Assembly (NCBI GenBank): GCA_022823665.1
Contig: JAJEHN010000015.1
Location: 4,195 to 68,194, forward strand
Length of the DNA stretch: 64,000 nt
Direction: 5' to 3'
Origin: Thermoanaerobaculia bacterium
GTDB taxonomy: Bacteria; Acidobacteriota; Thermoanaerobaculia; Multivoradales; Multivoraceae
Part shown: positions 7,661-43,396 of the stretch, piece by piece
Numbering within the stretch: the first letter of the stretch is position 1
How the letters are laid out: each line of letters begins with the position of its first letter
Notes under the pieces: generated by a model
What the model was told of the DNA's origin: nothing
Databases searched by the model: none
The model's input: the letters and a program-made list of their open reading frames with translations, nothing else
Position numbers and translations under genes: made by a program

Positions 7661-7748
7661 CGATTCGCGGGAGCATAGCCGCCGCGTGGAACGCCGGATT
7701 CCGCCTGCGGCGGATGCCGGCCAGAAGGCCGGCGCACCGACAGATACG

Positions 7749-9836
7749 ATGGGCGCCGCTCTCGAGATGCGCACGAAGACGATCCTTGGCTCCGCGGTGC
7801 TCTGCATCGCTTCCGCTGCCATGCCGGCAACCGCCCAGACCGGCGCGCCGGCCGGCGAGTGGCCGAGCTACGGCGGCGACGTCGGGTCGACCAAGTACTC
7901 GCCGCTGGACGAGATCGACGCCGCTAACTTCGCCGACCTCGAAGTCGCCTGGCGCTGGCGTTCGGTGGACGGCTTCCTGAGCAAGTCGGAGGCCGGCGGC
8001 GAGTGGTACGCCAACCGGGACGTCATCTTCGACCGGTTGAAGGACGACGATCCGCTGCTCTGGCGGGCCGGCCGCGCCCCCTTTATCCGCAACCTGAAGG
8101 CGACGCCGCTGATGCAGGAAGGCCTGCTCTTCCTGAACACGCCGATCTCGATCGCGGCCGCGGTCGACCCCGGCAGCGGTCGGACGGTCTGGGCCTACAA
8201 CCCGAAGAGCTACGAGAGCGGCACGACGACGATGACCGTCGTCTGGAACCAGCGCGGCGTCGCCTACTGGACGAACGGCGAGGAAGGCGACGAGGCGGAC
8301 AGCCGTATCTACTGGGGCACCGGCGACGGCTACCTGCTCTCGGTCGACGCCCGTACCGGCCGCCCGAACGAGGACTTCGGCGATGGCGGCCGCGTCGACC
8401 TGATGGAGGGCCTGCCGCGCGCCAACCGGGGCGAGCGGGACTACCTGAACGCCCTGCTCTACTCGATGCAGTCGCCGCCCGTCGTGGTCCGCGACGTGGT
8501 CGTCACCGGCGCCTCGATCGCCGACCGCCGGATCACCAGGGAGTCCATCCCGGGCTGGGTGCGCGGCTGGGACGCGCGCACGGGCGAGCTCCGCTGGGTG
8601 TTCCGCACCGTGCCGCAGGAGGGCGACGAGGGCGTCGAGACGTGGGAAGACGAGTCCTGGCGCTACTCCGGCAACGCGAACGTCTGGACGATGCTCTCGG
8701 GCGACAACGAGCACGGCATCGTCTACCTGCCGATCGGCACCGCCACGAACGACTTCTACGGCGGCCACCGCCCCGGCGACAACCTCTACTCCGAGAGCCT
8801 GGTCGCGGTCGACGTCGAGACGGGCGAGAAGCTCTGGCACTTCCAGGCCGTCCGCCACGGCCTCTGGGACTACGACTTCCCCGCCGCGCCGACGCTGATC
8901 GACCTCCCGGGTCCGGCGGGCGCCGATCCCCGGCAGATCGTCGCCCAGGTCAGCAAGCAGGGCTTCCTCTACGTCTTCGACCGCGTCACGGGCGAACCGG
9001 TATGGGAGATCGAGGACCGGCCGGTGCCCCCGGCGACGATGCCCGGCGACACGGCCGCGCCGACCCAGCCCTTCCCGACGAAGCCGGCGCCCTTCGAGTA
9101 CCAGGGCGTGACCGAGGACGACCTGGCCGACTTCACGCCCGAGATCAGGCAGATGGCCCTCGACGTGATCGAGGACTACCGGATCGGCCCGCTGTACACG
9201 CCGCCGTCGTTGCCCGAGCCCGGCGGCAAGCGGGGCACGATCTTCCGGCCGTCGGCCGGCGGCGGCGCGAACTGGTACGGCGCCGCGGTCGATCCGGAAA
9301 CCGGCTGGCTCTACGTGCCATCGCGCAACGCGTTCAGCATGATCACGTTCTACACGCCCGATCCTCTCGAAGGCGGGACGCTCCGCTACACCCACGGTGG
9401 CCGCGGCAAGCGGCCCGAGATGCCGGAAGGCCTGCCCCTGTTCAAGCCCCCCTACACCCGGATGACCGCGATCGACCTGAACACCGGTGAGCACGTCTGG
9501 ATGAAGCCGCTCGGCAACAACGACACGCTGCGCAACCACCCCCGCCTGAAGGACCTCGACCTGCCACCCCTCGGCGGCGACACCTACACCGGGCCGCTGC
9601 TGACGAAGACGTTGCTGATCCATGGCCAGCACGCACCGGAGGACGACGGCGGCAACCGCCTCGTCGCGCGGGACAAGCGGACCGGCGACGTGATCGCCGA
9701 GGTGCCCCTGCCGGCCCGCGGTCTAGGTACGCCGATGACCTACCTCTGGGAGGGCCGGCAGTACATCGCGCTGACCGTCGCCGGCAGGAGGGAGACGGAC
9801 GGCGTGCCGGAGTTGATGGCTTTCGCGCTGCCGTGA
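7749..9836 (+). CDS. PQQ-dependent dehydrogenase (quinoprotein alcohol/glucose dehydrogenase family), secreted
   Basis: Signal peptide MGAALEMRTKTILGSAVLCIASAAMPATAQ, then WPSYGGDVGSTKYSPLDEIDAANFADLEVAWRW (canonical quinoprotein N-terminus). Eight-bladed propeller W-motifs (WAY, WRYSGNANVWT, LWHFQ). About 690 aa. Start taken at the internal Met with the signal peptide; the track start is 32 codons upstream. Confidence 0.85.
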   Translation: MGAALEMRTKTILGSAVLCIASAAMPATAQTGAPAGEWPSYGGDVGSTKYSPLDEIDAANFADLEVAWRWRSVDGFLSKSEAGGEWYANRDVIFDRLKDDDPLLWRAGRAPFIRNLKATPLMQEGLLFLNTPISIAAAVDPGSGRTVWAYNPKSYESGTTTMTVVWNQRGVAYWTNGEEGDEADSRIYWGTGDGYLLSVDARTGRPNEDFGDGGRVDLMEGLPRANRGERDYLNALLYSMQSPPVVVRDVVVTGASIADRRITRESIPGWVRGWDARTGELRWVFRTVPQEGDEGVETWEDESWRYSGNANVWTMLSGDNEHGIVYLPIGTATNDFYGGHRPGDNLYSESLVAVDVETGEKLWHFQAVRHGLWDYDFPAAPTLIDLPGPAGADPRQIVAQVSKQGFLYVFDRVTGEPVWEIEDRPVPPATMPGDTAAPTQPFPTKPAPFEYQGVTEDDLADFTPEIRQMALDVIEDYRIGPLYTPPSLPEPGGKRGTIFRPSAGGGANWYGAAVDPETGWLYVPSRNAFSMITFYTPDPLEGGTLRYTHGGRGKRPEMPEGLPLFKPPYTRMTAIDLNTGEHVWMKPLGNNDTLRNHPRLKDLDLPPLGGDTYTGPLLTKTLLIHGQHAPEDDGGNRLVARDKRTGDVIAEVPLPARGLGTPMTYLWEGRQYIALTVAGRRETDGVPELMAFALP

Positions 9837-14452: not shown

Positions 14453-15586
14453 CTACTCCGGGAAGAGGCTCCGGTCCATCCCCGGGATGATCTTGAGCGC
14501 GTTGCGGAAGTAGATCTTCTCGAGCGCCCGGTCGGACAGGCCGAGGCCGTACATCTTCCAGTGGGCGTGGCGCTTCCGGTAGTAGTCGAAGTACTCATCC
14601 CGCGTCTCCAGCACGCGGAAGTAGATGTGGTAGCCCTCGATCGGGTCCCAGGAGTCCTTGCCCATCAGGACGCGGTCCTGGTACTGCTCGAGAAAGGCAG
14701 CGCCCGTGATCGGCTGCCGGCCGAGTTCGGCGAGGACCGCGCCGAGTTCGGTGTAGACGTTCGGCAGCTCGTCGAGCAGCTCGCCGAGCCGCGCCAGGTC
14801 GTTGCCGAGCCAGCCGAGATGGGCGTTGATGAAGGTCGTGTCGGGATGATTGCGGAACAAGTTGTGCTGCTCCCCCATCGTCTGCTCGAAGGAGGCGAAG
14901 CGCTTGGGATCGTCGCGACGCCGCCTCGGGAACATCTTGAGTTCGAGCCAGCGCTCGTTGTGCTCGTCCCAGGGGTCCCAGAACGGTGACGGCTCGCCGA
15001 CGTGGATCAGGACCGGGATGCCCAGCTCGCCCGCCTTCTCCCACACCGGAGCGATCCGCGGGTCGTCGGCCGCCACCCGCTGGCCGTCGCTGTCGGTCTG
15101 GAACATGCTGAGGTTCTTGTAGATCTTGAGACCCTGTGCGCCCGCCTCGACGTCGGCTTCGAGCTGCGCCGCCGCCTTCTCACCCCAGCCGGGTTGGCCG
15201 ATGCCCGAGAAGTCGACGTTCGCGTACACGACGAATCGACCCGGGTAGCGGCCCTTGGTGGCCGCGATGTTCCGCTGCAGCCCCTCGCCGCTGCCGCCGC
15301 TCAGGTTGACGAACACGGCCATGTTCAACTCGTCCATCGTCTTGATCATCTGGTCGATCCGCGCCGCATCGCCGCCGCGCAGATGGCCGTGAGCGTCGAC
15401 GAAGGGGAACTTCGCGCGCGTCACCGGTCCGCCCGGCACCTTGAGCGTCGAGCGCGGCTCGTACGCCTCCACGGTCATCTCCTGGCCGACGGCCGGCAGC
15501 GCCGCGGCGAGCAGCAGGGAGGCGAGCAGGAACCACCTCGGACCAGCGATTCGGATCGACGCGTTCGAACGGTGAGTGGCCGGCAT
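14453..15586 (-). CDS. Amidohydrolase-family (TIM-barrel metal-dependent hydrolase) secreted protein
   Basis: Signal peptide after the internal Met (MPATHRSNASIRIAGPRWFLLASLLLAAALPAVGQ). HxH metal-binding motif (FVDAHGHL). C-terminal motifs of the amidohydrolase_2 family. Confidence 0.65.
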   Translation of the reverse strand: MPATHRSNASIRIAGPRWFLLASLLLAAALPAVGQEMTVEAYEPRSTLKVPGGPVTRAKFPFVDAHGHLRGGDAARIDQMIKTMDELNMAVFVNLSGGSGEGLQRNIAATKGRYPGRFVVYANVDFSGIGQPGWGEKAAAQLEADVEAGAQGLKIYKNLSMFQTDSDGQRVAADDPRIAPVWEKAGELGIPVLIHVGEPSPFWDPWDEHNERWLELKMFPRRRRDDPKRFASFEQTMGEQHNLFRNHPDTTFINAHLGWLGNDLARLGELLDELPNVYTELGAVLAELGRQPITGAAFLEQYQDRVLMGKDSWDPIEGYHIYFRVLETRDEYFDYYRKRHAHWKMYGLGLSDRALEKIYFRNALKIIPGMDRSLFPE

Positions 15587-15683
15587 GTTCTCTTCCTCGG
15601 GTTCCAGATTGCTCGGCAAAGGCGTTGAAGCGGTCGGAGTCTACGGCAGGTTCCACCAGGCTACCCGCGTATACTCGCCGGCG

Positions 15684-15962
15684 ATGTCCATCGTGCGCGC
15701 CGCCGAGGTCGTCGTGCTGCTCTGCACCGTGTACATCGCCTGCGGCCTGGTCTTCGCAACGCTCTTCGCCTGGCGCGGCGCCGACCGCATCGATCCCGCC
15801 GTTAGGTCGGCCGGGCTCGGGTTCCGCCTGATCATCCTTCCCGGCGTCGTCGCGCTATGGCCCGTGCTGCTTCGCCGGTGGCTCTCCGGCCCCCTGCCGC
15901 CGGTGGAGCGCAACGCGCACCGCGACGCGGCCGAACGCCGCGGCAAGGGAGGTTCCGGATGA
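15684..15962 (+). CDS. Small membrane protein (2 TM), first gene of the lipid operon
   Basis: 92 aa from the internal Met MSIVRAAEVVVLLCTVYIACGLVFATLFAW...LIILPGVVALWPVLL. Its stop overlaps the next start (ATGA). Confidence 0.4.
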   Translation: MSIVRAAEVVVLLCTVYIACGLVFATLFAWRGADRIDPAVRSAGLGFRLIILPGVVALWPVLLRRWLSGPLPPVERNAHRDAAERRGKGGSG

Positions 15963-16153
15963 TCCGCGGCCTGCGCCGCCGCCACCGGCTGATCTGGGCG
16001 GTGCTGTTTCCTGTCGTGGCGTTGATACTGGTAGTCGCGTTGCTCTCGAGGCCCGAGCCGCCGTTGATGGACGAGATTCCCGCCGTGCGCCCGGTCGAAG
16101 CCGAGACGGTCAGCGGTGCCGAGGACCCTCAGCGGGAAGATGAAGGCCCGTGA
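15959..16153 (+). CDS. Small membrane protein (1 TM)
   Basis: 64 aa, MIRGLRRRHRLIWAVLFPVVALILVVALLS followed by an acidic tail. ATGA overlaps on both sides (with 15684..15962 and with the Rieske gene). Confidence 0.35.
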   Translation: MIRGLRRRHRLIWAVLFPVVALILVVALLSRPEPPLMDEIPAVRPVEAETVSGAEDPQREDEGP

Positions 16154-17220
16154 GCGCCGAGTACCAGGCGGTCCTCTGGAACCGCAACAAGAAGCTCTAC
16201 GACCTGACGATCGCGGCCGGCGTCGTGGCCTTTCTCGGCATCTTCGTCGGCATCGGCATCGCGACCCGCCCGCAGGCGACGATCGAAACCCTGCTGATCC
16301 GCGGCTTCGGCGCCGGCGCCCTGCTGCTGCTCCATGTCGTGCTCGCCATCGGGCCGCTCTGCCGGCTGGACTCCAGGTTCCTGCCCTTCCTCTACAACCG
16401 CCGCCACCTCGGCGTCTGCACGTTCCTGCTGGCCCTGGCTCACGGCGGGTTCTCGATCGTCCAGTTCCACGGCCTCGGCGTCCTCAACCCGCTGGTCAGC
16501 GTGCTTGCCAGCAACGGCAACTACGGCAGCCTGACCCAGTTCCCGTTCCAGGCGCTCGGCCTCCTGGCGCTGGTCATCCTGTTCCTGCTGGCGGCGACCT
16601 CGCACGACTTCTGGCTCGCGAACCTGACCGCGCCGGCGTGGAAGGCGCTCCACATGCTGGTCTACGTCGCCTACGGACTGATCCTGGTCCACGTGGCGCT
16701 GGGAAGCCTCCAGGCTCCGGAGCGATCGCCGGCGCTCGCCGTCCTGCTGGGCATCGGCTTCGCCGGCGTCGCCTCGTTGCACCTCGTGGCCGGCTGGCGC
16801 GAGCGCGCCCCGGCGCCGAACGCCGAGGTAGGCGGTGCCGCGGTCGATGTCTGCGCCGTCTCCGACATCCCCCTCGACCGGGCCCGGATCTTCCTGCTCA
16901 GCGGCGAGCGAGTGGCGGTGTTTCGTTACAGCGCGGACGGCGGCGAGCGAATCGCGGCCGTCTCCAACGTCTGCCAGCACCAGAACGGACCGCTCGGCGA
17001 AGGCCGGGTGATCGACGGCTGCATCACCTGCCCGTGGCACGGCTACCAGTACCGTCCCGAGGACGGCTGCTCGCCGCCGCCGTTCACGGAGACCATCCCG
17101 ACCTTCAACGTCCGCGTCGAGAACGGCCGGGTGCTGGTCGATCCGCGTCCCAATCCGCCCGGGACCCATGCCGAGCCGGCACGGCTCGGCGCCGCGACCG
17201 GCGCCGGGGAGCCTTCGTGA
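16150..17220 (+). CDS. Ferric-reductase-like transmembrane bis-heme domain fused to a Rieske [2Fe-2S] domain
   Basis: N-terminal six TM helices carrying two His pairs spaced 12-13 residues apart (RRHLGVCTFLLALAHGG; ALHMLVYVAYGLILVHVALG). This is the FRD/YedZ-type heme-b ligation pattern. The C-terminal Rieske box is CQHQNGPL...GCITCPWHGYQY (CxH-x16-CxxH). Confidence 0.8.
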   Translation: MSAEYQAVLWNRNKKLYDLTIAAGVVAFLGIFVGIGIATRPQATIETLLIRGFGAGALLLLHVVLAIGPLCRLDSRFLPFLYNRRHLGVCTFLLALAHGGFSIVQFHGLGVLNPLVSVLASNGNYGSLTQFPFQALGLLALVILFLLAATSHDFWLANLTAPAWKALHMLVYVAYGLILVHVALGSLQAPERSPALAVLLGIGFAGVASLHLVAGWRERAPAPNAEVGGAAVDVCAVSDIPLDRARIFLLSGERVAVFRYSADGGERIAAVSNVCQHQNGPLGEGRVIDGCITCPWHGYQYRPEDGCSPPPFTETIPTFNVRVENGRVLVDPRPNPPGTHAEPARLGAATGAGEPS

Positions 17221-18131
17221 CCGGCGAGCGCCACGACGATTTCTACGTCGGCTATGTCGACGAGACGCCGCCTCGCGTCGCGCGTTTCGCCCGCCGCGCC
17301 GCGATCGGCCTCGTGCTACTGGCCACCGCCCTGGGCGCCGGTCTGGCGCTGCTGCTGGAGCGGTTCGACGAAGGCGTCTTCGAGTACGGCACGGTGCGGG
17401 ACTACGAAGGCGAACTGTTCGTCGATCCCCATCCCCGGCTGCTGACGGCGGACGGACCGGCCGAGGGCTATCTGCTGGTCGGCGTGGGTAAACGGGCACT
17501 CGATGTAACCGGCGAGCCCAGCGCGCCCTCGACGCCCTCGCCGTCCAGGAAGACCGGGCTTTCGGGCACGCTCATCCGGAACCCGGAAGCGGCGATGCTG
17601 GAAGTCCACTCCCTCGATCTCCCTGAAGGAACCCTTGAAGCTGGACCCGCCGTCGAGCCGGACGCTCGGGCCGCTCAATCCGCTCCGCCGACCAGCGGCT
17701 CGCCCCTCGACGGCGAGAGGGCCGGTCCGGAGTCCGAGGTGACAACCATCGTCACTCACGTCCGTGGGCACACCCTGCTGGGCGAGATCGTCGACACGAA
17801 GTGCTATCTCGGCGCCATGAAGCCGGGCCGCGGCAAACCCCACCGGGACTGCGCCTCGCTCTGCATCCGGGGCGGCATTCCGGCCGCGCTCCTGGTGCGG
17901 ACGGAAGGCGGAGAGCGTCACCTGGTCCATCTGCTGAACCCGCAGGGCAAGCCGTTGGGGCGCGAGCTCCTCGAGTGGGTGGGCGAACCGGTGGAAGTGT
18001 GGGGAACCCTGAGGCGGCGCGAGAACCGCCTGTTCCTGCGGACAATCACCATCAGACCGACACGCGCCCCGGCGCCATCCATCGTCGTCCCGGCGGCGCG
18101 CGAACCCGGGGCTGCAACAGCCGATGACTGA
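17217..18131 (+). CDS. Membrane-anchored hypothetical protein
   Basis: GTG start overlapping the Rieske stop (GTGA). 304 aa. One N-terminal TM (AAIGLVLLATALGAGLALLL). A Pro/Ser-rich linker. A C-terminal domain with conserved Cys/His (CYLGAMKPGRGKPHRDCASLCIRGG). Its stop overlaps the olsB start by 8 nt. Confidence 0.5.
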   Translation: MTGERHDDFYVGYVDETPPRVARFARRAAIGLVLLATALGAGLALLLERFDEGVFEYGTVRDYEGELFVDPHPRLLTADGPAEGYLLVGVGKRALDVTGEPSAPSTPSPSRKTGLSGTLIRNPEAAMLEVHSLDLPEGTLEAGPAVEPDARAAQSAPPTSGSPLDGERAGPESEVTTIVTHVRGHTLLGEIVDTKCYLGAMKPGRGKPHRDCASLCIRGGIPAALLVRTEGGERHLVHLLNPQGKPLGRELLEWVGEPVEVWGTLRRRENRLFLRTITIRPTRAPAPSIVVPAAREPGAATADD

Positions 18132-18987
18132 ACCGGTACGCAGCAACGCCTCGGCAACCGGTTCGTGCGGCGGCAGCGTTCCGAGCCCCGAACGCCTGCC
18201 CGACGGTCAGATCGAAGCCGGCACCTACCGCCTGCGCTTCGCCCGCACCGCCGCCGACATCGACCGGCTGCTCGCGCTCCGTTTCGAGGTCTTCAACCTG
18301 GAGCTGGGTGAGGGCCTCGACGAGTCGTACGACACCGGCCGCGACACGGACGACTTCGACGCGAGTTGCCACCACATGCTGGTCGAGCGGACGGACGGCA
18401 CGATGATCGGCACGTACCGAATGCAGACGGCCGCCATGGCGGCCCGCGCCAACGGTTTCTACTCGGCCATCGAGTACGACCTGGACGCCCTGCCCCGCAG
18501 CGTGCTCGAGCAGTCGGTCGAGATCGGCCGGGCCTGCATCCATCGCCGGCACCGGAAGCGGACCGTTCTCTTCCTGCTCTGGCAGGGCCTGGCCCGCTAC
18601 ATGGTGCACAACCGCCTCCGCTACCTGTTCGGCTGCTGCTCCCTGACCAGCCAGGACCAGGCCGCCGGCATCCGGCTCTACCGGCAGCTCGTCGCGGCGG
18701 GCAAGGTCCGGCCCGACCTCGACGTACCGGTGCTCGAGCACGCCCGCTGCGAGGCGCCGGCCGAGGCGGTCGAGAACCGTCCGGAGGTCGAGATACCGGC
18801 CCTGTTCGCGACCTATCTGCGCTACGGCGCCCTCGTCTGCAGCCGGCCGGCCATCGACCGCGACTTCAAGACGATCGACTACCTGGTCCTGATGGACACC
18901 GCGACGCTCAGCCGGCGCATCCGGCTGATCTTCGGACTCGACCGGGCGCCGGCGGCCGGACCGGCCACGCACGCCGCCGACGCCTGA
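18124..18987 (+). CDS. olsB: Ornithine-acyl-ACP N-acyltransferase (OlsB-like GNAT / Acetyltransf_5)
   Basis: 287 aa. Hallmark OlsB N-terminal region YRLRFARTAADIDRLLALRFEVFNLELGEGL. Followed 5 nt later by a PlsC-type acyltransferase. Confidence 0.8.
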   Translation: MTEPVRSNASATGSCGGSVPSPERLPDGQIEAGTYRLRFARTAADIDRLLALRFEVFNLELGEGLDESYDTGRDTDDFDASCHHMLVERTDGTMIGTYRMQTAAMAARANGFYSAIEYDLDALPRSVLEQSVEIGRACIHRRHRKRTVLFLLWQGLARYMVHNRLRYLFGCCSLTSQDQAAGIRLYRQLVAAGKVRPDLDVPVLEHARCEAPAEAVENRPEVEIPALFATYLRYGALVCSRPAIDRDFKTIDYLVLMDTATLSRRIRLIFGLDRAPAAGPATHAADA

Positions 18988-18991
18988 GGGA

Positions 18992-19807
18992 ATGCGCCTC
19001 CTGCGCGTCTGCCGGCTGGCCTGGCGTGGCCCGGCATTCCTCCTGCTCACGCTGGCCGCGTGGCTGCCGCTGTTCGTGCTGAAGCCGTTTCTCGCGGGCC
19101 GCCGCTACCCGACCTGGCGGAAGGTCCGCGCCGGCATCATGCGCCGCTGGGGCCGCGCCTGCCTGGCGGTGCTCGGCTGCCGGGTGACGGTCCGTGGCGC
19201 GCCGCCGGCGCCGCCCTGCCTGCTGGTCTCGAACCACATCTCCTACGTCGACATCCTGGTGCTCGCGGCCTACTCGCCCGCCCGCTTCGTCTCCAAGGCC
19301 GAGATCGCGGACTGGCCCCTGGCCGGCACCGTCTGCCGAACGGTCGACATCATCTTCGTCGACCGCGGCCGGCGCCGCGACGTGACCCGGGTCGGCGAAC
19401 AGATCGCCGAAGCCCTCGAGGCCGGCGACCCGGTCATCCTCTTCCCCGAAGGCACCTCGACCCCCGGCGACGCGGTGGCCACCCTCAAGCCCTCCCTGCT
19501 GGCGCCGGCCGCCGTCCAGGAACTGCCGGTCCACTGGTCCGTTCTGCGCTACGAGACACCGGATGACGAGGATCCCGCCTTCCTGAGCGTCGCCTGGTGG
19601 GGCGAGATGCCGATGACGCCGCACGCGCCCGAGCTGCTCAAGCTCCGCCGCATCGAGTGCGCACTCGAGTTCGGAGCGGAACCGTTCCGCAACGCGGACC
19701 GCAAGGAACTCGCGGGCCTGCTGCGGCGCCGGATGACGGCGGCGTTCCGGCCGATGGTCTCGAGCGAGAAAGCGGCCGCCTCAACCGGCGACCGCCGGTT
19801 CCCATGA
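18992..19807 (+). CDS. olsA: Lyso-ornithine lipid O-acyltransferase (PlsC/LPLAT family)
   Basis: HX4D motif (SNHISYVDI) and FPEGT motif, with an N-terminal TM. It follows the olsB-like gene. Its stop overlaps the next start (ATGA). Confidence 0.8.
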   Translation: MRLLRVCRLAWRGPAFLLLTLAAWLPLFVLKPFLAGRRYPTWRKVRAGIMRRWGRACLAVLGCRVTVRGAPPAPPCLLVSNHISYVDILVLAAYSPARFVSKAEIADWPLAGTVCRTVDIIFVDRGRRRDVTRVGEQIAEALEAGDPVILFPEGTSTPGDAVATLKPSLLAPAAVQELPVHWSVLRYETPDDEDPAFLSVAWWGEMPMTPHAPELLKLRRIECALEFGAEPFRNADRKELAGLLRRRMTAAFRPMVSSEKAAASTGDRRFP

Positions 19808-22449
19808 CGACCTCCGGGCGGCGTCTGCCCTGGCTCCGGATCGCGCTCGGCGCCTATGCCGCCGCGCTGCTCGCGTCGACCGCCGTTCGCATCGTTGCGC
19901 CCGAACCGCCGCTGCCCGAACACCGCAAGACGATGGAGATCCCGACGCCGAGCGGCGAAGGCACGCTGCGCATCGCCTGGAACGAAGCGCCGGGAACCGA
20001 CGAGAGCATGTTTCCGCTCGTCTTGCTCCACGGTTCGCCCGGAAGCGCCGACAACTTCCGTCAACTCCGGGTGATCTGGGTTCTGAGAGCACTGGCCGAA
20101 CCGGCTGGCGACACGGACCAGAGCAGTGAGGCGGGGATCCGCAGCCGGCGGCTCATCACGCCCGACTTGCCAGGCTTCGGCGCCTCCGACAATCGCGTCG
20201 CCGACTACTCCTCCCGCGGCCACGCCGACTCGACGCTGAAGCTGCTCGACCGGCTGGGCGTCGACCGGTTTCACGTCCTCGGTTTCAGCATGGGCGGCGC
20301 GGTGGCGCTGCATCTCGTCGACCAGGCGCCCGACCGGGTGGCGTCCGTGATCATGGTCTCCTCGGTCGGCGTGCAGGAACTCGAGCTCCTGGGCGACTAC
20401 ACGGTCAACCACGGTCTGCACGGTCTCCAGCTCGGCCTGCTCTGGACGATCCGGAACCTGGTTCCCCACTTCGGCCTGCTCGACATCCCCGCAGCCCGCT
20501 CCTACGCCCGCAACTTCTACGACACGGATCAGCGACCACTACGAGGCATCCTGGAGTCCCTCGAAGCGCCGGTCTTCATCATCCACGGCGCGCGGGATCC
20601 ACTGGTCCCGGCCGCCGCGGCGCTGGAGCACCACCGCGTCGTGCCGCACAGCGAGCTGTGGATGCGGCCGGACAGCCACTTCTTCCTGTTCCGCGGCGGC
20701 GACGACCTGATGGATCGGATCGAGGAGTTCCTGGGCCGCGTCGAAGCGGGCGAGGCGGCCACGCGCGGCGATGCCGAAGCGGAGCGGCTGCGGCGGGCGG
20801 CACTGCCGTTCGACGACATGGACCTGCCGCCGTTCACCGGTCCCGCCCTGCTGATCGTCTTCCTGCTTCTCGTTTTCGCCGCGTACGCCAGCGAGGACCT
20901 GACCTGCATCACCGCCGGTCTGCTCGTCGCCCAAGGCCGGCTCGACTTCCCCGTGGCCGTCGCCGCCTGCTACGCCGGCATCCTGAGCAGCGACCTCGGC
21001 ATCGCCTGGCTGGCGCGCGTCCTCGGCCGGCCCGCGCTCAGACTGCCGCCCTTCAAGTGGTGGGTCAGCGAAGCGAGGTTCGAAGAGGCTTCGGCCTGGC
21101 TGCGGCGGCGCGCCCTGGTCGTCGTTCTGGTCAGCCGTTTCCTGCCGGGAACGCGGCTGCCGACGTGCCTGGCGGCCGGCATCCTGCGCACGAGCCTGCT
21201 CCGGTTCTGCTTCTACTTCGCTCTCGCCGTGGCCATCTGGACACCCGCCTTCGTCGGCGTCAACGCGCTCCTGGGACGCGAGGCGGTGGAACGTTTCGGC
21301 GGCCGGCTGCCGGGGGGGCTGCTCGGCGCCGCGCTGGCGCTGGCGGCCGTCATCTTCACCGTCCGGAGCGTCGTTGTGCCGCTCTTCACCTGGCGCGGCC
21401 GCCGCCTCTGGCGCGGCCGCCTGCTGCGCATCCGGCACTGGGAGTTCTGGCCGATGTGGGCGTTCTACCCGCCGCTCGCGCTCTACATCCTCTGGCAAGG
21501 CCTGCGACGCGGCAGCCTCACCGCGTTCACCGCGATCAACCCCGCCATGCCTCTCGGCGGCCTGCTCGGAGAATCGAAGAGCGACATCCTGGACGGGCTC
21601 GCCGGCATCGGCGACGCGCTGCCCGCCTGGAAGCGAATGCCGGCGGGAAGCCATGAGGAACGCATCGCGGCTCTGCGCTGCTTCCTGGAAGAAGAGAAGC
21701 TGGACTATCCGGTCGTGCTCAAGCCGGACACCGGCGAGCGCGGCCGCGGTGTCGCCGTGGCGCGCTCCGAAGCCGATGCGGCGACCTTCTTCGAGGAGAC
21801 GCCGGGACCGGCGCTCGCGCAGGAGTACGTCGCGGGCGAGGAGTACGGCGTGTTCTGGGCTCGCCACCCGGGCCGCCACGACGGGCACGTCTTCTCGATC
21901 ACCCACAAGGTCCGGCCCACGGTAACCGGCGACGGAACCAGCACCCTCGAACGGCTGATCCTGGCCGACGCGCGCGCCGTCGCCATCACCCACGTCTACC
22001 GGCGCGAACATCCGGAAGCGGCGACGCGGATCCCGGCCGCCGGCGAGGAAATCGAACTGACCGAGGTCGGCGCCCACTCGCGCGGGACGATCTTCCTGGA
22101 CGCGAACGACCTCCACACGCCCGAACTCGAACAGGCGATGAACACGATCTGCACCGCCTACGAGGGCTTCGACTTCGGCCGTCTCGATGTCCGCGCCCCC
22201 AGCGCCGAAGCCCTGCGGCGCGGTGAGGGCCTCCGCGTCCTGGAAGTCAACGGCGTGACCTCCGAGGCGACGCACATGTACGACGCCCGCTACGGCTTCT
22301 TCGCCGCCCACGCCATCCTGCGGCGCCAGTGGCGGATGGCCTTCGACCTCGCCGCCGAGCACACTCGCGACGGCGCCCAACCGGCGACCGTGAGTGAGAT
22401 CGTCCGCGCCGTCCGGGCAGAACGACGAGCCCGCCGCGGCGCGGCGTAG
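19804..22449 (+). CDS. Three-domain fusion: alpha/beta-hydrolase + DedA/VTT membrane domain + ATP-grasp carboxylate-amine ligase
   Basis: 881 aa from the internal Met (MTTSGRRLPWLRIALGAYAAALLAS, TM). (1) HGSPGS...GFSMGG (GxSxG nucleophile elbow) and a later ...IHGARDPLVP motif: alpha/beta-hydrolase. (2) LLIVFLLLVFAAYASEDLTCITAGLLVAQGRLDFPVAVAACYAGILSSDLGIAWLARVLGRP...LVSRFLPGTRLPTCLAAG: DedA/SNARE-associated. (3) YPVVLKPDTGERGRGVAVARSEADA...QEYVAGEEYGVFW...LEVNGVTSEATHMYDA: RimK-like ATP-grasp. The track ORF is extended 69 codons upstream. Confidence 0.75.
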   Translation: MTTSGRRLPWLRIALGAYAAALLASTAVRIVAPEPPLPEHRKTMEIPTPSGEGTLRIAWNEAPGTDESMFPLVLLHGSPGSADNFRQLRVIWVLRALAEPAGDTDQSSEAGIRSRRLITPDLPGFGASDNRVADYSSRGHADSTLKLLDRLGVDRFHVLGFSMGGAVALHLVDQAPDRVASVIMVSSVGVQELELLGDYTVNHGLHGLQLGLLWTIRNLVPHFGLLDIPAARSYARNFYDTDQRPLRGILESLEAPVFIIHGARDPLVPAAAALEHHRVVPHSELWMRPDSHFFLFRGGDDLMDRIEEFLGRVEAGEAATRGDAEAERLRRAALPFDDMDLPPFTGPALLIVFLLLVFAAYASEDLTCITAGLLVAQGRLDFPVAVAACYAGILSSDLGIAWLARVLGRPALRLPPFKWWVSEARFEEASAWLRRRALVVVLVSRFLPGTRLPTCLAAGILRTSLLRFCFYFALAVAIWTPAFVGVNALLGREAVERFGGRLPGGLLGAALALAAVIFTVRSVVVPLFTWRGRRLWRGRLLRIRHWEFWPMWAFYPPLALYILWQGLRRGSLTAFTAINPAMPLGGLLGESKSDILDGLAGIGDALPAWKRMPAGSHEERIAALRCFLEEEKLDYPVVLKPDTGERGRGVAVARSEADAATFFEETPGPALAQEYVAGEEYGVFWARHPGRHDGHVFSITHKVRPTVTGDGTSTLERLILADARAVAITHVYRREHPEAATRIPAAGEEIELTEVGAHSRGTIFLDANDLHTPELEQAMNTICTAYEGFDFGRLDVRAPSAEALRRGEGLRVLEVNGVTSEATHMYDARYGFFAAHAILRRQWRMAFDLAAEHTRDGAQPATVSEIVRAVRAERRARRGAA

Positions 22450-22453
22450 CGCC

Positions 22454-22921
22454 TTACCCCGCCTTCGCGGACGCCTTCTTCTTCGTCGTCCGCCGCCGCG
22501 GCTTCGGCTTCTCCAGGGCGTCGAGTCGCGCTTCGATCGCGCTCAGCCGCTCGATCACCGCCTCCAGGTCGGCCTTGCCGGGGACGCCGAGCTTCTCGAG
22601 TCGCCGCTCCAGGTGCTCGTCGATTCCCGTCCGCGCCTTGGCCCGGGTCTGCTCGATTCCCTTCTCGGCGGCGGAGCGCACCTGCTGGACCTTCTCCTCG
22701 GCCTTGTCCCGCCAGTTGCCCAGGGAGTCCCGACCCTGGCTTTCGACCTTCTCGCCGCGGGCGACCAGCCGGTCGAAGACCTTGGCCCCCGCGTCCGCCG
22801 CTTCGCCCGCCACGCCGACGCCGGCGAGCGCCACCTTGTGAGCCTTGTCGACGGCGGATTCGACCACCGCCCGCGCTTTCGATTCGCTATCCCTGGTTTC
22901 CGCCGCGGATGCTGCTGTCAT
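22454..22921 (-). CDS. Phasin / PHA granule-associated protein (TIGR01837-like)
   Basis: 155 aa. Coiled-coil, Lys/Glu-rich. The motif ...KVFDRLVARGEKVESQGRD...LEKLGVPGKADLEAVIERLSAIEARLDALE is typical of the poly(hydroxyalkanoate) granule-associated family. Confidence 0.6.
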   Translation of the reverse strand: MTAASAAETRDSESKARAVVESAVDKAHKVALAGVGVAGEAADAGAKVFDRLVARGEKVESQGRDSLGNWRDKAEEKVQQVRSAAEKGIEQTRAKARTGIDEHLERRLEKLGVPGKADLEAVIERLSAIEARLDALEKPKPRRRTTKKKASAKAG

Positions 22922-22937: not shown

Positions 22938-23711
22938 CTAGCGCCTTGCCGCCAGCCGCCGCTTCACCGTCTCGATGGGATTGCGATAGTCCACCGTGCC
23001 GAGGCCGCGGTTGGTCAGCTTGTAACCGATCAACGCCTGCAGCTTCTCCGGCATTTCCACCACGACTTCCCACGGCACGCCGACGAACTGGTTCTCCCGC
23101 TGCTTGAGCCACGCCAGGTTGAAGTTGAAGTTGATCGACCGTCGATACCCGTTGTCCGTCGAATTCCCGCCGCCCCGGTGCCAGACGGCGCCGTCCCAGA
23201 GGAACAGCGCCCCGGCCGGCATCTCCACGGTCAGCGTGGGCACGTCCGGATCGACCGGATCGGCAGAGCGGTGGCTGCCGGGAACGATCTCCGTCGCCCC
23301 GTTCTCGGCCGTAAACGGATCGAGCGCGATCAACGTGTTGGCGATCAGCGGAAAGTGCGGCCGCGCAAGCGGATAGTGGCCGTCGTCCTGGTGCATCCGC
23401 TGGCGACGGTCGCCCGGGCCCGGGCGCATCGCGGCGACGCCGGAGACCTGGTAGTCCGGGCCGAGCACCGCCTCCACCAGCCCCAGCAGGCGGTCGTCCA
23501 TGAGGAGTTCGTCGACGGCGCGGGTCTTGGCCAGCAGGTTGTGGGTGTGGATCGTCTGCTGGCCGTAGTCGTCCGTCAGCCGGCTGCCGATCTCGTCGAA
23601 AACGGGGGCGAGGCCACGCCGCAGCCCCTCCAGCATCTCTTCGTCCAGGAAGTCGGGCACCACCGTGTAGCCGTCTTGGCGGACCTGGCGCGCTGAAGTC
23701 TCGATATCCAT
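22938..23711 (-). CDS. Phytanoyl-CoA dioxygenase (PhyH) family Fe(II)/2-oxoglutarate oxygenase
   Basis: PhyH fold markers: HQDDGHYP (HxD facial triad), GALFLWDGAVWHRGGGN (distal His), RRS. Start set at the internal Met MDIETSARQ. Confidence 0.7.
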   Translation of the reverse strand: MDIETSARQVRQDGYTVVPDFLDEEMLEGLRRGLAPVFDEIGSRLTDDYGQQTIHTHNLLAKTRAVDELLMDDRLLGLVEAVLGPDYQVSGVAAMRPGPGDRRQRMHQDDGHYPLARPHFPLIANTLIALDPFTAENGATEIVPGSHRSADPVDPDVPTLTVEMPAGALFLWDGAVWHRGGGNSTDNGYRRSINFNFNLAWLKQRENQFVGVPWEVVVEMPEKLQALIGYKLTNRGLGTVDYRNPIETVKRRLAARR

Positions 23712-23779
23712 GAAGTCCCGTGAACAGTGATCCGTTGAAGCTTGCGCGGCAGCGTAACAAAGCGGGTAGCCTTCGTCCC

Positions 23780-24685
23780 ATGACAAGAAAGACGATGTAC
23801 AGCCGACCGATGTTCCGGGCCCTCCTGGCGACGCTGATCACGTTCGTCGCCTTCTCCGGCGCCTGGGCGCAAAGCGACGCCTCGACCCAGGCCTTCACGG
23901 CGAGCGACGGCGTCGAGATCCACTACCTCGTCGAGGGCCGCGGCGACCCGGTCGTGCTGCTCCACGGCATCACCGGCACCGCCGCCTCGAACTGGGGCGC
24001 CGCCGGCATCATCGGCCGGCTGGCCGAGGAGTTCCAGGTCATCGCCGTCGACCAGCGCGGGCACGGCAAGAGCGGCAAGCCGCACGACGCGGCGAGCTAC
24101 GGCGAGCGCATGGCCCTGGACGTCGTCGACCTGCTCGACCACCTGAGGCTGCAGCAGGCGCACGTCGTCGGCTACTCGATGGGCGGCTTCATCACGATGA
24201 AAGTCGTCGCCCTCGCGCCTGACCGGTTGATGTCGGCCGTGGTCGGCGGCGCCGGCTGGCCCAGCCCCGAACTGCGCGACGACGCGATGTTCGACGCGCT
24301 CGCGGAGTCTCTCGAGGGGGGCAACGGCGGAGGCCCCCTGGTCGAGTTCCTGTGGCCGGGCGAGGAACCGCCGACCCCCGAGCAGGTTCAGGCGATCGGC
24401 CAGGCGATGGTCGCCTCGAACGACCAGGCGGCCCTGGCAGCGGTCGTCCGCGGCATGGCCGGTCTCGACGTGAGCGCCGAACTCCTGCGCGTCAACAAGG
24501 TGCCGACCCTCAACATCATCGGCAGCGACGATCCCCTGAAGCCCAACGCCGACGCTCTGGTCGACACCATGCAGGAGCACCGCCTCCACGTCATCGAAGG
24601 CGCGAACCACATGAACACCCTGAACTCCCCCGAGTTCGTCGACACCGTCCGCGCTTTCTTCATCGAACTCTGCAACTGCGCGTAG
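23780..24685 (+). CDS. Secreted alpha/beta-hydrolase
   Basis: Signal peptide ...MFRALLATLITFVAFSGAWAQ. HGITGTAASNW. GYSMGG nucleophile elbow. C-terminal GANHM (His). The start is ambiguous among three in-frame Met (23780/23795/23810). Confidence 0.7.
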   Translation: MTRKTMYSRPMFRALLATLITFVAFSGAWAQSDASTQAFTASDGVEIHYLVEGRGDPVVLLHGITGTAASNWGAAGIIGRLAEEFQVIAVDQRGHGKSGKPHDAASYGERMALDVVDLLDHLRLQQAHVVGYSMGGFITMKVVALAPDRLMSAVVGGAGWPSPELRDDAMFDALAESLEGGNGGGPLVEFLWPGEEPPTPEQVQAIGQAMVASNDQAALAAVVRGMAGLDVSAELLRVNKVPTLNIIGSDDPLKPNADALVDTMQEHRLHVIEGANHMNTLNSPEFVDTVRAFFIELCNCA

Positions 24686-24716: not shown

Positions 24717-25853
24717 CTACGCCGAGAGCTGCGTCTCGACGAGCGTCGTCCAGTAGCGCATGCCGACCGGCAGGACGTCGTCGTTGAAGTCGTAGCGCGG
24801 GGTGTGGAGCCCGGCGCTTTCGCCGTTGCCGAGGAACATGAAGGCGCCAGGGCGCTCCTGGAGCATGTAGGCGAAATCCTCGGAGCCCATCACCGGGGCC
24901 AGGCTCGTGGTGACTTCCCTGCCGACCTCGCGGGCGGCGTTGGCCGCCTTCTCCGTCTGCTCGGCGTGGTTCACCGTCGCCGGGTAGTAGTGGCGGTACT
25001 GGAACTCGAAGCCTGCGCCGTGGGCGGTGCAGATGCCGCGGCCGATCTGGCGCATCCGCCGCTCGACCAGCTTCTGCACCTCGGGCAGGAACGCCCGGAC
25101 GCAGCCGCCGTGGACGACCCGGCTCGGGATCACGTTGTCCGCGTGACCGCCGTGGACACGGGCCACCGTGATCACCGCGCTATGGAGCGGATCCACGTTG
25201 CGGGCGACGATCGTCTGCAGGGCGAGGACGATCTCGGCCCCTATCGGGATCGGGTCCACCGTGCCGTGAGGAAACGCCGCGTGGCCGCCCGCGCTGGTCA
25301 CCGCGAACTCGAAGACGTCGATGGCCGCCATCAGCGGCCCGGCGCAGAGGCCGAAATTGCCGACGTCCATGCCCGGATAGTTGTGGACGCCGTAGACCTC
25401 CTCGGCCGGGAACTGCTCGAACAGCCCCTCCTCGATCATCACCCGGGCGCCGCCGTCCTTCTCCTCCGCGGGCTGGAAGAAGAAGTAGACCGTGCCGTCG
25501 AAGGACCGGTTCTCGCTCAGGTGCTTCGCCGCGCCGAGCAGCATCGCGGTGTGGCCGTCGTGGCCGCAGGCGTGCATCTTGCCGGGGTTCCGGGAACGGT
25601 GCTCGAAGTCGTTCTCCTCGTGAATCGGCAACGCGTCCATGTCCGCCCGCAGCGCGATGCTGCGGTCAGACGAACCGGACCTGAGCACGCCGACCACCCC
25701 GGTGCCGGCGAGGCCGCGATGAACCTCGATGCCGCCGAAGGACTCGAGCAGCTTCGCCACCTTGCCGCTCGTCACCTTCTCCTCGAACGCGAGTTCCGGG
25801 TGCCGGTGGAAGTCCCGGCGCCAGGACCTCATCTGTTCGTGCAGCGGATCCAT
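24717..25853 (-). CDS. M20D-family amidohydrolase (hippurate hydrolase / aminoacylase-like)
   Basis: MHACGHDGH metal-binding motif. The conserved M20 dimerisation domain. Start at the internal Met MDPLHEQMRSWRRDFHRHPELAFEE, which is the typical family N-terminus. Confidence 0.8.
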   Translation of the reverse strand: MDPLHEQMRSWRRDFHRHPELAFEEKVTSGKVAKLLESFGGIEVHRGLAGTGVVGVLRSGSSDRSIALRADMDALPIHEENDFEHRSRNPGKMHACGHDGHTAMLLGAAKHLSENRSFDGTVYFFFQPAEEKDGGARVMIEEGLFEQFPAEEVYGVHNYPGMDVGNFGLCAGPLMAAIDVFEFAVTSAGGHAAFPHGTVDPIPIGAEIVLALQTIVARNVDPLHSAVITVARVHGGHADNVIPSRVVHGGCVRAFLPEVQKLVERRMRQIGRGICTAHGAGFEFQYRHYYPATVNHAEQTEKAANAAREVGREVTTSLAPVMGSEDFAYMLQERPGAFMFLGNGESAGLHTPRYDFNDDVLPVGMRYWTTLVETQLSA

Positions 25854-25884
25854 GAGCTTCGATGGTAGCGGACGATCGAACCTC

Positions 25885-26301
25885 TCAACGACCGCCTTCG
25901 GGGGCGAACGGGTCGAGCACCGGGACTCCGAACGGCTCGAAGTCCCGGACATTCCGGGTAACCACCGTGAGGCCATGAGTTCGGGCCACGGCCGCGATCA
26001 TCGCGTCCTGGACCAAGGCTCCGGACTGCCGGTGCATCAGCCGTCCCCATTCTCTGAACGCGGCTGAGTCCAGAACCAGGACGGGATAGGCAAGGACCAC
26101 CTGCTCCAGCCATGTCTCCAACTCCCGAGCCTTGTCCGCGTCCGTCGCCCTCGTGATCTCGATTCCCGCCTGGATCTCGCCGATCGTGACCGCAGAGAGA
26201 TGAAGACGCTCGGACGGCACGCCGCGAATCCACCGCAGAACCGACGGATGCGGGCGAGGACGTCGCAACTCGGATACGACGTTCGTGTCGAGCAGATACA
26301 C
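25885..26301 (-). CDS. vapC: PIN-domain toxin VapC (type II TA)
   Basis: 138 aa. MYLLDTNVVSE (first acidic residue of the PIN fold). Conserved D...E...D...TRN pattern. A Phd/YefM-like gene sits immediately upstream, 5 nt away. Confidence 0.8.
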   Translation of the reverse strand: MYLLDTNVVSELRRPRPHPSVLRWIRGVPSERLHLSAVTIGEIQAGIEITRATDADKARELETWLEQVVLAYPVLVLDSAAFREWGRLMHRQSGALVQDAMIAAVARTHGLTVVTRNVRDFEPFGVPVLDPFAPEGGR

Positions 26302-26306
26302 GGAAG

Positions 26307-26567
26307 TCAGTCGAAACGCGGCGCGGCGCGGCGGCGCAACGCCCGCCGCGGCGGAGCCAGGGTCTCGGTCCGCGGTTCAGAGGCCAGCAGCAGCGTCTTG
26401 AGGTCCGGCCTCGACGCCCGCAGCAGCAGCCGCCACTGCTCGATGGGCACCAGGACGGCCGTCTCGACGCCACGCTTCGTCACGATCTGTGGCCCCTCGG
26501 CGACACTCGTCTCCAGGAACTCGCTGAAACGGGCCTTCGCATCCTGCACCTGCCACACGTTGTCCAT
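26307..26567 (-). CDS. vapB: Phd/YefM-family antitoxin (VapB-like)
   Basis: 86 aa. N-terminal W.V.DAKARFSEFLE...GPQIVTKRGVETAVLVPIEQW is the Phd/YefM fold. Confidence 0.75.
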   Translation of the reverse strand: MDNVWQVQDAKARFSEFLETSVAEGPQIVTKRGVETAVLVPIEQWRLLLRASRPDLKTLLLASEPRTETLAPPRRALRRRAAPRFD

Positions 26568-37427: not shown

Positions 37428-37475
37428 GGGCGCGCTGCGTACTTGGCTTCCCGCCATGCCGCGAAAGCTGGCGAT

Positions 37476-38438: not shown

Positions 38439-38537
38439 GGGCCGACCGTACAACTCTGCGCGACCTTGGTCAAGCGGACTACCTCGACCCGGTACTGCGC
38501 CTCCACGACCGACCAAAGAAGGTGACGGATACAGCCA

Positions 38538-40699: not shown

Positions 40700-41076
40700 G
40701 AGGTTCTCTCATCCGGAGGGAGTGGCCCGCGGTTGGCAACGAGCCGAGCGGTAAGGCGGACGAGCGCGGTGCACAGGATCAGCGTGTTCGCCTATTACTG
40801 ACACGAGATCACTCCGAGCGCAGGTGACTGCGCAGAATCTCCCTCACGACATCTTCCAAGGACCTCTCGGAACCAGCGACATCGCTCAGCCGAGGGTCCA
40901 CGAGGAGGCCAAGCCTACACGGACCCTCCGGTGACGAGCCTCGGTCCCAACTCCGCGACTCGCAGAGGCGACTGCCAGCGTGACGGCGGTCAGCCTGATC
41001 CTTCGCCGGCTGACCCGAACACTCCGGAGCGGTCGGAGCCTCGCCTCTGCCCCCCCGGGTCGCCTCAACCTCCAAC

Positions 41077-42573: not shown

Positions 42574-42655
42574 TTGAAGCGTCCACCGCCAGCGGCCCGG
42601 ACATGCCCCGGCCCCTCAACGACCGCTCCTCGCCCCGCCCGCGATTCCGGCGTGG

Positions 42656-43267: not shown

Positions 43268-43396
43268 GCATTGGAGTATACGGACCGCTTTCGTCGACCG
43301 TCCAGAAAGAACCTTGCTTCACCTTGGCCCATGAGAGATGAACCCGCTCCTTCCGCTGCCGAACGGAAGCGCCTACGAGCGAGCAGACCTGACAGC

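Follow-up and report, generated by a model that had tools for sequence, protein, structure and literature searches.

A seven-gene operon of two conserved modules in a Thermoanaerobaculia genome that probably makes and exports an uncharacterised membrane lipid

The DNA analysed here, a 64,000-nucleotide stretch of a contig from a Thermoanaerobaculia bacterium (hereafter the window), carries at 15684-22449 seven consecutive plus-strand genes, g1 to g7, that form a real operon built of two conserved modules. The first four (g1-g4, module B) make up a membrane redox unit, and the last three (g5-g7, module A) a lipid unit that combines OlsB-like and OlsA-like acyltransferases with a large protein in which an alpha/beta-hydrolase, a DedA/VTT domain and an ATP-grasp ligase are fused. 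The operon probably makes and exports an uncharacterised membrane lipid. More specifically, we propose, at what we judge to be just short of an even chance, that module A is an uncharacterised aminolipid pathway whose product would have its head-group carboxylate extended, would be flipped and would then be remodelled outside the cytoplasmic membrane. Each part falls into a known superfamily, but the g4 family, the four-gene redox unit and the ATP-grasp/DedA/hydrolase protein with its linkage to olsBA are apparently undescribed. In the literature we found no description of the cluster, of DedA-ATP-grasp proteins, of an aminolipid ATP-grasp, of the g7-olsBA linkage, of the g4 family or of the redox unit, in line with an earlier note on this DNA, drawn from its letters alone, which knew of no pathway with this gene set.

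The seven open reading frames (ORFs), all of which were confirmed, are as follows (aa, amino acids).

15684-15962, plus strand: g1, 92 aa, two predicted membrane helices, first gene of the redox module
15959-16153, plus strand: g2, 64 aa, single-pass membrane protein
16150-17220, plus strand: g3, 356 aa, ferric-reductase domain (FRD) at ~16204-16788 and Rieske domain at ~16843-17142
17217-18131, plus strand: g4, 304 aa, membrane anchor at ~17301-17357 and second OB-fold at ~17769-18059
18124-18987, plus strand: g5, 287 aa, OlsB-like N-acyltransferase (GNAT_5)
18992-19807, plus strand: g6, 271 aa, OlsA-like (PlsC-family) O-acyltransferase with an N-terminal membrane helix
19804-22449, plus strand: g7, 881 aa, fusion of anchor helix, alpha/beta-hydrolase, DedA/VTT domain, linker and ATP-grasp

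An independent public gene call for the same contig (ENA metagenome scaffold KELL22-1, scaffold_503) contains the identical seven genes. Their third-position GC content is 0.81-0.93 (0.88 for g1 and 0.82 for g2) and, since such values are expected for genuine genes in a 70% GC genome, we take the ORFs to be real; GC content is 68-72% over most of the window. The directon is limited by a divergent amidohydrolase gene (14453-15619, minus strand) on one side and a convergent phasin gene (22454-22921, minus strand) on the other; that the seven genes form one directon agrees with the earlier note. The junctions are also largely as described there, with ATGA overlaps at g1/g2 (15959-15962) and g6/g7 (19804-19807), GTGA overlaps at g2/g3 (16150-16153) and g3/g4 (17217-17220), and an 8-nt overlap, ATGACTGA, at g4/g5 (18124-18131); only the g5/g6 gap, between a TGA ending at 18987 and an ATG starting at 18992, is 4 nt (18988-18991) rather than 5 nt. 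Reading strict co-translation into these junctions was an overstatement. Tight 4-nt overlaps support an operon but are commonplace between same-strand genes in such genomes, and the overlaps themselves are not kept in relatives. What takes the arrangement beyond chance is a gene order shared by several phyla at ~45% protein identity. The g1 ATG is preceded, at a distance of 6 nt, by a TATACT hexamer (region 15672-15686) and not by a Shine-Dalgarno sequence, and g1 may be translated from a leaderless mRNA; GGGAGG is found 8 nt 5' of the g2 ATG. Consensus scans of 15300-22800 returned no sigma-70 promoter or intrinsic terminator, and g2 is poorly conserved, both of which would suit a view of the seven genes as mere neighbours without shared function, or of the small ORFs g1 and g2 as no genes at all. 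We consider this extremely improbable, for all junctions fall between an 8-nt overlap and a 4-nt gap, conserved g1 homologues occupy the same place in different phyla and the cluster is syntenic across the loci described below.

The g7 protein belongs to a family of more than 2,000 homologues, and its parts, all encoded on the plus strand, are these.

19840-19896, plus strand: anchor helix, residues 13-31
~19951-20763, plus strand: PlaF-like alpha/beta-hydrolase (Abhydrolase_1, profile match to PlaF)
~20833-21384, plus strand: DedA/VTT domain (PF09335)
~21385-21603, plus strand: basic linker with a conserved WEFWP hydrophobic helix
~21604-22383, plus strand: ATP-grasp amide ligase (conserved residues, profile matches)

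That this is a genuine three-domain fusion, as first noticed from the letters alone, is borne out by Pfam matches to Abhydrolase_1 (1.5e-26) and VTT_dom (PF09335, 2.7e-12, 47.7 bits vs 33.9) and, for the third part, by the ATP-binding Lys, the Mg-binding E-x-N and the model matches at family level that characterise the ATP-grasp superfamily. In 16 diverse g7 homologues the hydrolase triad (Ser162/Asp265/His292), the residues E364, D365, R445 and R451 typical of DedA/VTT domains, and Lys640, Glu814 and Asn816 of the ATP-grasp are all invariant, which is why all three parts look active. The hydrolase profile matches PlaF, a membrane-bound phospholipase A1 of Pseudomonas aeruginosa (PDB 6i8w), over residues 51-310, i.e. 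the whole domain, and both proteins have an anchor helix followed by a Ser-Asp-His alpha/beta-hydrolase. In g7, however, this domain runs on into a polytopic membrane protein, and its activity and location are predicted only. An AlphaFold2 model of g7 has a confidence (pLDDT) of 80, and Foldseek on this model returned mostly generic esterases and added nothing.

The ATP-grasp part would carry out the ligation step of the proposed pathway. Among solved structures, the ligase profile matches cyanophycin synthetase (1.8e-7) as well as GshAB, Ddl, a RimK-domain protein and a protein of the glutathione synthase type, and L-amino-acid ligases and Ddl-type enzymes are among its nearest relatives. With the nearest solved ligases (the cyanophycin synthetase G domain, RimK and GshAB, E values of 1.8e-7 to 1e-5) it shares the ATP-binding Lys, the E-x-N and a GDG-x-ST-L insertion, but identity is low, the g7-type ligase has a WEFWP...YPP...NP...GESK region of its own at the N-terminus, and a DedA partner is either part of the same chain or encoded next to it. 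The RimK model PF08443 reaches 2.6e-7 in members of the g7 family, whereas no RimK equivalog in NCBIfam matches g7, whose ligase domain is joined to membrane parts and has lipid genes as neighbours. The possibility that it is simply RimK acting on ribosomal S6, or a member of another characterised family, which the earlier note had named as fatal to its idea, has therefore not materialised: judged by its sequence, this ATP-grasp is nearest to the carboxylate-amine ligases that form peptide bonds. ATP-grasp enzymes are known to extend N-acylated amino acids, e.g. DdaF in dapdiamide synthesis, and RimK-type enzymes perform C-terminal extension.

As to topology, the family-wide N-tail of g7 before the first helix has on average 3.6 K/R and 0.5 D/E (net +3) and the flank that follows is neutral. 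A strongly basic character is shared by the loop after the first transmembrane (TM) helix of the DedA domain and the part that precedes WEFWP. A DedA domain consists of re-entrant loop 1, a first TM helix, a cytosolic region, re-entrant loop 2 and a second TM helix, of which loop 1 enters from the side away from the cytosol, and PlaF, of the same anchor-plus-domain design, has a periplasmic catalytic domain (PMC9132575). We infer an N-in anchor, a periplasmic hydrolase, the DedA domain and a cytoplasmic ATP-grasp. A cytoplasmic hydrolase, as the canonical helix count of DedA proteins had suggested, was considered and dropped, since the DedA domain begins with a re-entrant loop and the stand-alone DedA proteins of this subfamily (Salinivibrio, Paracoccus), which start at the first hydrophobic hairpin, have acidic N-tails with no K/R.

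The two acyltransferases belong, by their profile matches, to the OlsB and OlsA families, as the first reading had held. The GNAT_5 domain (PF13444) that defines OlsB is found in g5 at 9.1e-29 (100.6 bits vs a cut-off of 22.4), and the best NCBIfam matches are the OlsB equivalogs NF052554 (135.1 bits vs 350) and NF052555 (130.8 vs 320), neither of whose cut-offs is reached. Likewise, g6 has a PlsC-type domain (PF01553, 1.8e-20) with the motifs NHISYVD (HX4D) and FPEGT expected of OlsA, and its best NCBIfam matches are OlsA equivalogs at 129.9 and 128 bits, again below the cut-off of 300. The order of a GNAT_5 N-acyltransferase and a PlsC-family O-acyltransferase with HX4D and FPEGT motifs is that of Sinorhizobium meliloti OlsB/OlsA, from which the pair differs by scoring ~40% of the cut-offs and by being embedded in a larger conserved cluster with the ATP-grasp/DedA/hydrolase protein. 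From its family, g5 should form an N-(3-hydroxyacyl) amino acid. The first reading had taken ornithine as the head group, which is an assumption at 135 vs 350 and 130 vs 300 bits.

The strongest evidence that these genes belong together comes from their conservation. In a scan of one genome per species, 80 loci with a g7 relative were examined (412 candidates were confirmed in all), 51 of which have at least 4.5 kb on both sides and form the full-flank subset; neighbours were identified by tblastn with the proteins of the window. The genomes nearest to the window locus are metagenome-assembled genomes of Thermoanaerobaculia/'Candidatus Multivorans', but the cluster extends over Acidobacteriota, Gemmatimonadota, Planctomycetota (including the cultured Engelhardtia mirabilis Pla133, L062, where the order is olsB-olsA-DinB-NRDE-fusion), Myxococcota and Rhodothermia, with 41-50% identity for the fusion. 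The gene-neighbourhood co-occurrence of which the earlier note had made a test was found: olsB lies beside the fusion in 41 of the 51 full-flank loci (61/80 overall), olsA in 35 (52/80 overall) and the redox module in 26. Two further genes, DinB_2 (23/51) and NRDE (14/51), recur in a pan-cluster order of [g1, small protein, FRD-Rieske, g4] - olsB - olsA - DinB_2 - NRDE/TANGO2 - fusion. These DinB_2 (~175 aa) and NRDE/TANGO2 (~245 aa, N-terminal Cys) genes, which come on top of the gene set first described and are part of the cluster in most other lineages, sit between olsA and the fusion in L015, L020, L041, L057-L066, L084 and others; they are missing from the clade of the window, where they have been lost. 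TANGO2 has recently been reported to bind acyl-CoA (PMC11867700).

The placement of the redox module varies. It is downstream in L032 and L083 and inverted in L035 and L067, which points to selection that keeps the genes close and not to an order simply inherited. When distant g4 relatives were taken as the starting point, a DedA/ATP-grasp gene again adjoined the module in three of about seven loci (L083, L084 and the P0282 contig), while the four-gene unit has unrelated neighbours in L085/L086, L087 and L089, some of which have short flanks. The unit is thus a semi-autonomous module, often but not always attached to lipid genes. In L085/L086 the stand-alone module is followed by a gene for a 2,868-aa Ig-repeat protein.

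A few loci carry additional enzymes. A group-II pyridoxal-phosphate (PLP) decarboxylase gene overlaps the start of olsB in L083 (1-2672), where it is preceded by a thiamine-pyrophosphate enzyme with a Rieske domain, and precedes olsB in L032 (~6988-8370). It is nearest to diaminobutyrate and aspartate decarboxylases and, in some Thermoanaerobaculia, may supply a head group or an amine. Being of this type and present in only 2-3 loci, it was kept as a lead only, not as evidence for a taurine-type amine. An MsrB gene beside g4 in L083, considered as a clue to methionine-sulfoxide repair, was dropped as not recurrent.

Relatives of module A in cultured Proteobacteria show its parts both split and fused. 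When plasmid and chromid records were searched in translation with the g7 ligase, 29 of them matched at 33-39% identity over ~90% of the query, and these matches include the unusual WEFWP...YPP...NP...GESK region. In Salinivibrio kushneri and Vibrio aquimaris there is an operon of separate DedA, ATP-grasp, DinB and NRDE genes without olsB (DinB and NRDE at L095 8108-9426 and L096 8149-9276). Paracoccus denitrificans PD1222 (plasmid 1) and P. ferrooxidans have the ATP-grasp followed by an alpha/beta-hydrolase homologous to that of g7, and in P. denitrificans PD1222 the next gene, which is convergent, is annotated as a VTT (DedA) protein; the genes concerned are PDEN_RS24485, RS25810 and RS24475. 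Azospirillum has a DedA-ATP-grasp fusion. In Variovorax sp. PDNC026 a gene for an 'iron-containing redox enzyme' is followed by the ATP-grasp and, 10 nt further, by an OlsB-like GNAT_5 gene (L093 5092-8878); the ATP-grasp of Komagataeibacter lies beside the same kind of redox enzyme (L090 6074-9011), which is a heme-oxygenase-like di-iron protein (PF14518). From the existence of split and fused forms we conclude that the three g7 domains cooperate, and the tie between this ligase and an OlsB-type N-acyltransferase came about in more than one arrangement.

Aminolipids are major phosphorus-free membrane lipids, and the pathway that we propose would lead to such a lipid in the following way. The OlsB-like g5 would N-acylate an amino acid with a 3-hydroxy fatty acid and the OlsA-like g6 would add a second, ester-linked fatty acid, giving an acyloxyacyl aminolipid. 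The membrane-tethered cytoplasmic ATP-grasp would then activate the free head-group carboxylate of this presumed substrate as an acyl phosphate and couple it to an amine or amino acid, resulting in a lipodipeptide or an amide-capped aminolipid. The DedA domain would move this lipid to the outer leaflet, where the PlaF-like hydrolase, predicted to be periplasmic, would remove or transfer an acyl chain. There is a published precedent for an alpha/beta-hydrolase as O-acyltransferase (OlsI), and by analogy an OlsI-like role could matter in loci without olsA. We prefer this scheme because the synteny of the fusion with olsB and olsA is kept across Acidobacteriota, Gemmatimonadota, Planctomycetota, Myxococcota and Rhodothermia, because the Variovorax pair of ATP-grasp and OlsB-like genes is independent of it, and because the ATP-grasp is nearest to ligases that extend carboxylates (cyanophycin synthetase, GshAB, Ddl, RimK-type).

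Several observations weigh against it. Scores of ~40% of the equivalog cut-offs mean that the head group of the g5/g6 product is not fixed as ornithine, and the ATP-grasp of the window protein itself is below the Pfam gathering score (19.9 bits vs 23.2). The topology is based on charge counts and analogy only. The DinB_2 and NRDE proteins, present in most lineages, have roles for which the proposed pathway does not account. The redox module also occurs without module A, so that co-location is all that ties it to the lipid, and any chemical connection between the two modules would be conjecture. Finally, ~20% of the full-flank loci have no nearby olsB, nor is there one adjacent to the Paracoccus, Vibrio and Azospirillum versions, so that the substrate of the ATP-grasp need not be an OlsB product. 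These last absences, together with the match of the hydrolase to a glycerophospholipid phospholipase, would be expected if OlsB/OlsA made an ordinary ornithine (or other simple) aminolipid and g7 were a general membrane-lipid homeostasis factor, a phospholipase plus DedA scramblase whose ATP-grasp acts on a different lipid or small molecule, e.g. by aminoacylating a phospholipid head group, the genes being regulated together for envelope remodelling without making up a single pathway. Yet olsB/olsA have stayed adjacent in at least five phyla despite rearrangements, the pairing of ATP-grasp and olsB-like genes arose in a quite different context in Variovorax, and the 4-nt overlap of g6 and g7 in the window suggests joint expression; we therefore regard a homeostasis factor as unlikely.

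The order of events might also be different. With L-amino-acid ligases and Ddl-type enzymes so close, the ATP-grasp might act before acylation, building a dipeptide or an amino-acid-amine head group that a divergent OlsB could accept, or, given that the best NCBIfam match of the DedA domain is the undecaprenyl-phosphate transporter UptA, it might attach an amino acid to an undecaprenyl-linked cell-wall precursor handled by that domain. The UptA score is however far below the cut-off (49.7 bits vs 250), the conserved neighbourhood contains no cell-wall genes, and a ligase that is permanently tethered to a domain of lipid transport would be expected to have a substrate in the membrane. Both variants thus seem to us quite unlikely, and modification of the finished aminolipid remains our preferred order.

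Module B is built around g3, the bis-heme and Rieske membrane protein recognised at the outset, which combines Ferric_reduct (PF01794, 2.8e-12, 47.2 bits vs a cut-off of 28) with Rieske (PF00355, 1.5e-14, 54 bits). It has the six helices and the two His pairs for two b hemes (H86/H98 and H168/H181) of the FRD superfamily and the CxH...CxxH ligands of a Rieske cluster (C275, H277, C294 and H297), all of these residues being invariant in 36 homologues. Because of the basic N-tail and the six helices, the Rieske domain is predicted to be cytoplasmic. The other three proteins, g1, g2 and g4, matched no family in Pfam, NCBIfam or relaxed Pfam searches. Homologues of g1 (40-84% identity, tblastn) lie directly 5' of the FRD-Rieske gene in 32 of the 80 loci and in the stand-alone modules L085, L087 and L088, whereas the g2 slot is filled in other lineages by a different small protein of 52-173 aa; g2 itself has a basic N-tail and an acidic C-tail predicted from hydropathy and charge to be outside. 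The alignment of g4 shows, after the membrane anchor, a conserved N-domain that a variable linker joins to a C-terminal block reading GEIVDxKCYLGxMKPGRGKPHRxCAxxCIRGGIP, with an invariant Cys3His motif (C196, H209, C212 and C216) in the second of two OB-folds; charge counts place the g4 domain in the periplasm. It represents a new family of periplasmic OB-fold Cys3His proteins, for which a profile search of 1.8 billion representative proteins found 2,684 clusters (50% identity). Several of these matches, of 563-631 aa, are single-chain FRD-Rieske-g4 fusions (P0282, P0340 and P0353), from which it follows that g3 and g4 act together, and the order of parts in them fits a cytoplasmic Rieske domain and a periplasmic g4.

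Electrons would accordingly pass from the cytoplasmic Rieske cluster through two b hemes to the periplasmic Cys3His OB-fold protein. As for this presumed direction, a gene for a Rieske protein with an NADPH-dependent flavin mononucleotide (FMN) reductase adjoins the module in L059 (12660-13853), L063 (10301-11449) and the P0282 contig; this reductase is the likely electron donor in these relatives and suggests that the electrons come ultimately from NAD(P)H and flow outward, although there is no such gene in the 64-kb window. FRD-Rieske was catalogued as an architecture type in 2013 (PMC3591440). MsrQ/MsrP and other FRD conduits are comparable in having a di-heme FRD predicted to pass electrons across the membrane to a periplasmic partner, but g3 scores 42.9 bits vs 130 against the MsrQ model NF003831, its partner g4 is not a molybdoenzyme and two small membrane subunits accompany it; the operon has no MsrP-like gene, and g3 is thus not an MsrQ.

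In the first reading, these electrons were to serve hydroxylation or desaturation of the aminolipid. The redox module does adjoin the lipid genes in 26 of the 51 full-flank loci, downstream and inverted arrangements included, and since the ATP-grasp of Variovorax and Komagataeibacter lies beside a di-iron redox enzyme, some redox step may belong to the system. The proposal nevertheless finds no support in the gene content: Pfam, NCBIfam and relaxed Pfam searches found no oxygenase, desaturase or hydroxylase domain in g1-g4, and g3 has only a Rieske domain of ~100 aa after the FRD, of the ferredoxin type (its best NCBIfam matches are ferredoxin subunits and NirD), without the C-terminal catalytic mononuclear-iron domain of Rieske non-heme iron oxygenases. 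Moreover, g4 is an OB-fold protein on the predicted periplasmic side, and in L085, L087 and L089 the four-gene module has no lipid genes next to it. We consider such a role improbable. The g1-g4 unit defines a family of transmembrane electron conduits that is large (~2,700 clusters at 50% identity) and unstudied.

The logic proposed for g7 resembles that of a well-known phospholipid system. MprF is an aminoacyl-phosphatidylglycerol synthase-flippase that works alongside a periplasmic aminoacyl-lipid hydrolase. In both, a cytoplasmic domain that modifies the head group is combined with a lipid translocator and an outer-face hydrolase, a likeness of logic and not of ancestry: there is no sequence relationship, the chemistry of g7 would proceed through an acyl phosphate (ATP-grasp) whereas that of MprF is tRNA-dependent, the g7 translocator is of the DedA type and its substrate is presumed to be phosphorus-free. 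Known aminolipid biosynthesis comprises OlsBA, OlsF or OlsHI, a few hydroxylases and one methylase, and the modifiers of ornithine lipids covered in a 2026 review, hydroxylases and an N-methyltransferase, include none of the g7 kind (PMC12971839). The only ATP-dependent head-group amidation known is the transfer of taurine to ornithine lipid (cerilipin formation), which makes an amide at the carboxylate and whose gene has been missing for decades (PMC12971839). This is the chemistry expected of an aminolipid-linked ATP-grasp, and homologues of the g7 ligase occur in Acetobacteraceae (36% identity, Komagataeibacter plasmids); on the other hand, nothing links the g7 family to taurine, and the Komagataeibacter gene has no olsB neighbour. 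By analogy, the family is a candidate class for taurine-type amidations.

A broader generalisation is conceivable, though less likely than not. In it, g7 and its split relatives would form a new class of ligases that use ATP to modify lipid head groups and work with a DedA flippase of their own. Such a system, the counterpart of MprF for phosphorus-free lipids, would export lipodipeptides or amide-capped aminolipids and would be the enzyme class behind amidations such as that giving taurine-ornithine lipid, with FRD-Rieske-g4 as a new periplasmic reductase acting on the lipid or the envelope. If true, this ligase-flippase system would be common among Acidobacteriota, Gemmatimonadota and Planctomycetota. 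That phyla abundant in soil and the sea conserve an ATP-grasp/DedA/lipase protein tied to olsBA points to a class of lipids and a route of export as yet unassigned in lipidomics, and the pathway would in addition provide a DedA protein with a defined lipid substrate. Related versions in cultured bacteria, some of them open to genetic manipulation (Engelhardtia mirabilis, Paracoccus denitrificans PD1222, Vibrio, Azospirillum, Variovorax), make the hypothesis directly testable.

Elsewhere in the window, Rfam and tRNA scans of which were empty, the following features were recorded.

22938-23786, minus strand: PhyH-family Fe/2-oxoglutarate dioxygenase, two genes downstream of the operon
23720-24685, plus strand: stand-alone alpha/beta-hydrolase paralogous to the hydrolase domain of g7 (tblastn match at 23948)
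24717-25976, minus strand: M20 peptidase/amidohydrolase
25885-26567, minus strand: PIN-domain toxin and PhdYeFM antitoxin pair (from the public record, L001 16082-16764, shifted by +9803)
41077-42573, minus strand: DUF6880 protein
43397-44590, minus strand: AAA_14/DUF4143 ATPase
54475-64000, minus strand: giant ORF of >3,160 aa that runs off the end of the window, with LRR, Calx-beta, fn3, P-domain and PKD repeats

The first three of these genes are syntenic only within the 'Ca. Multivorans' clade and could be lineage-specific lipid modifiers; with a dioxygenase so near, the absence of modifiers asserted in the earlier note is to be taken with reserve. The stretch at ~37400-44600 has a lower GC content (62-67% vs ~70%), includes, besides the DUF6880 and AAA_14/DUF4143 genes, a gene with a match to a DNA-methylase fragment and two ORFs without a family, and is probably an acquired island. 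To judge from its repeats, the giant ORF encodes a probable surface or adhesion protein.

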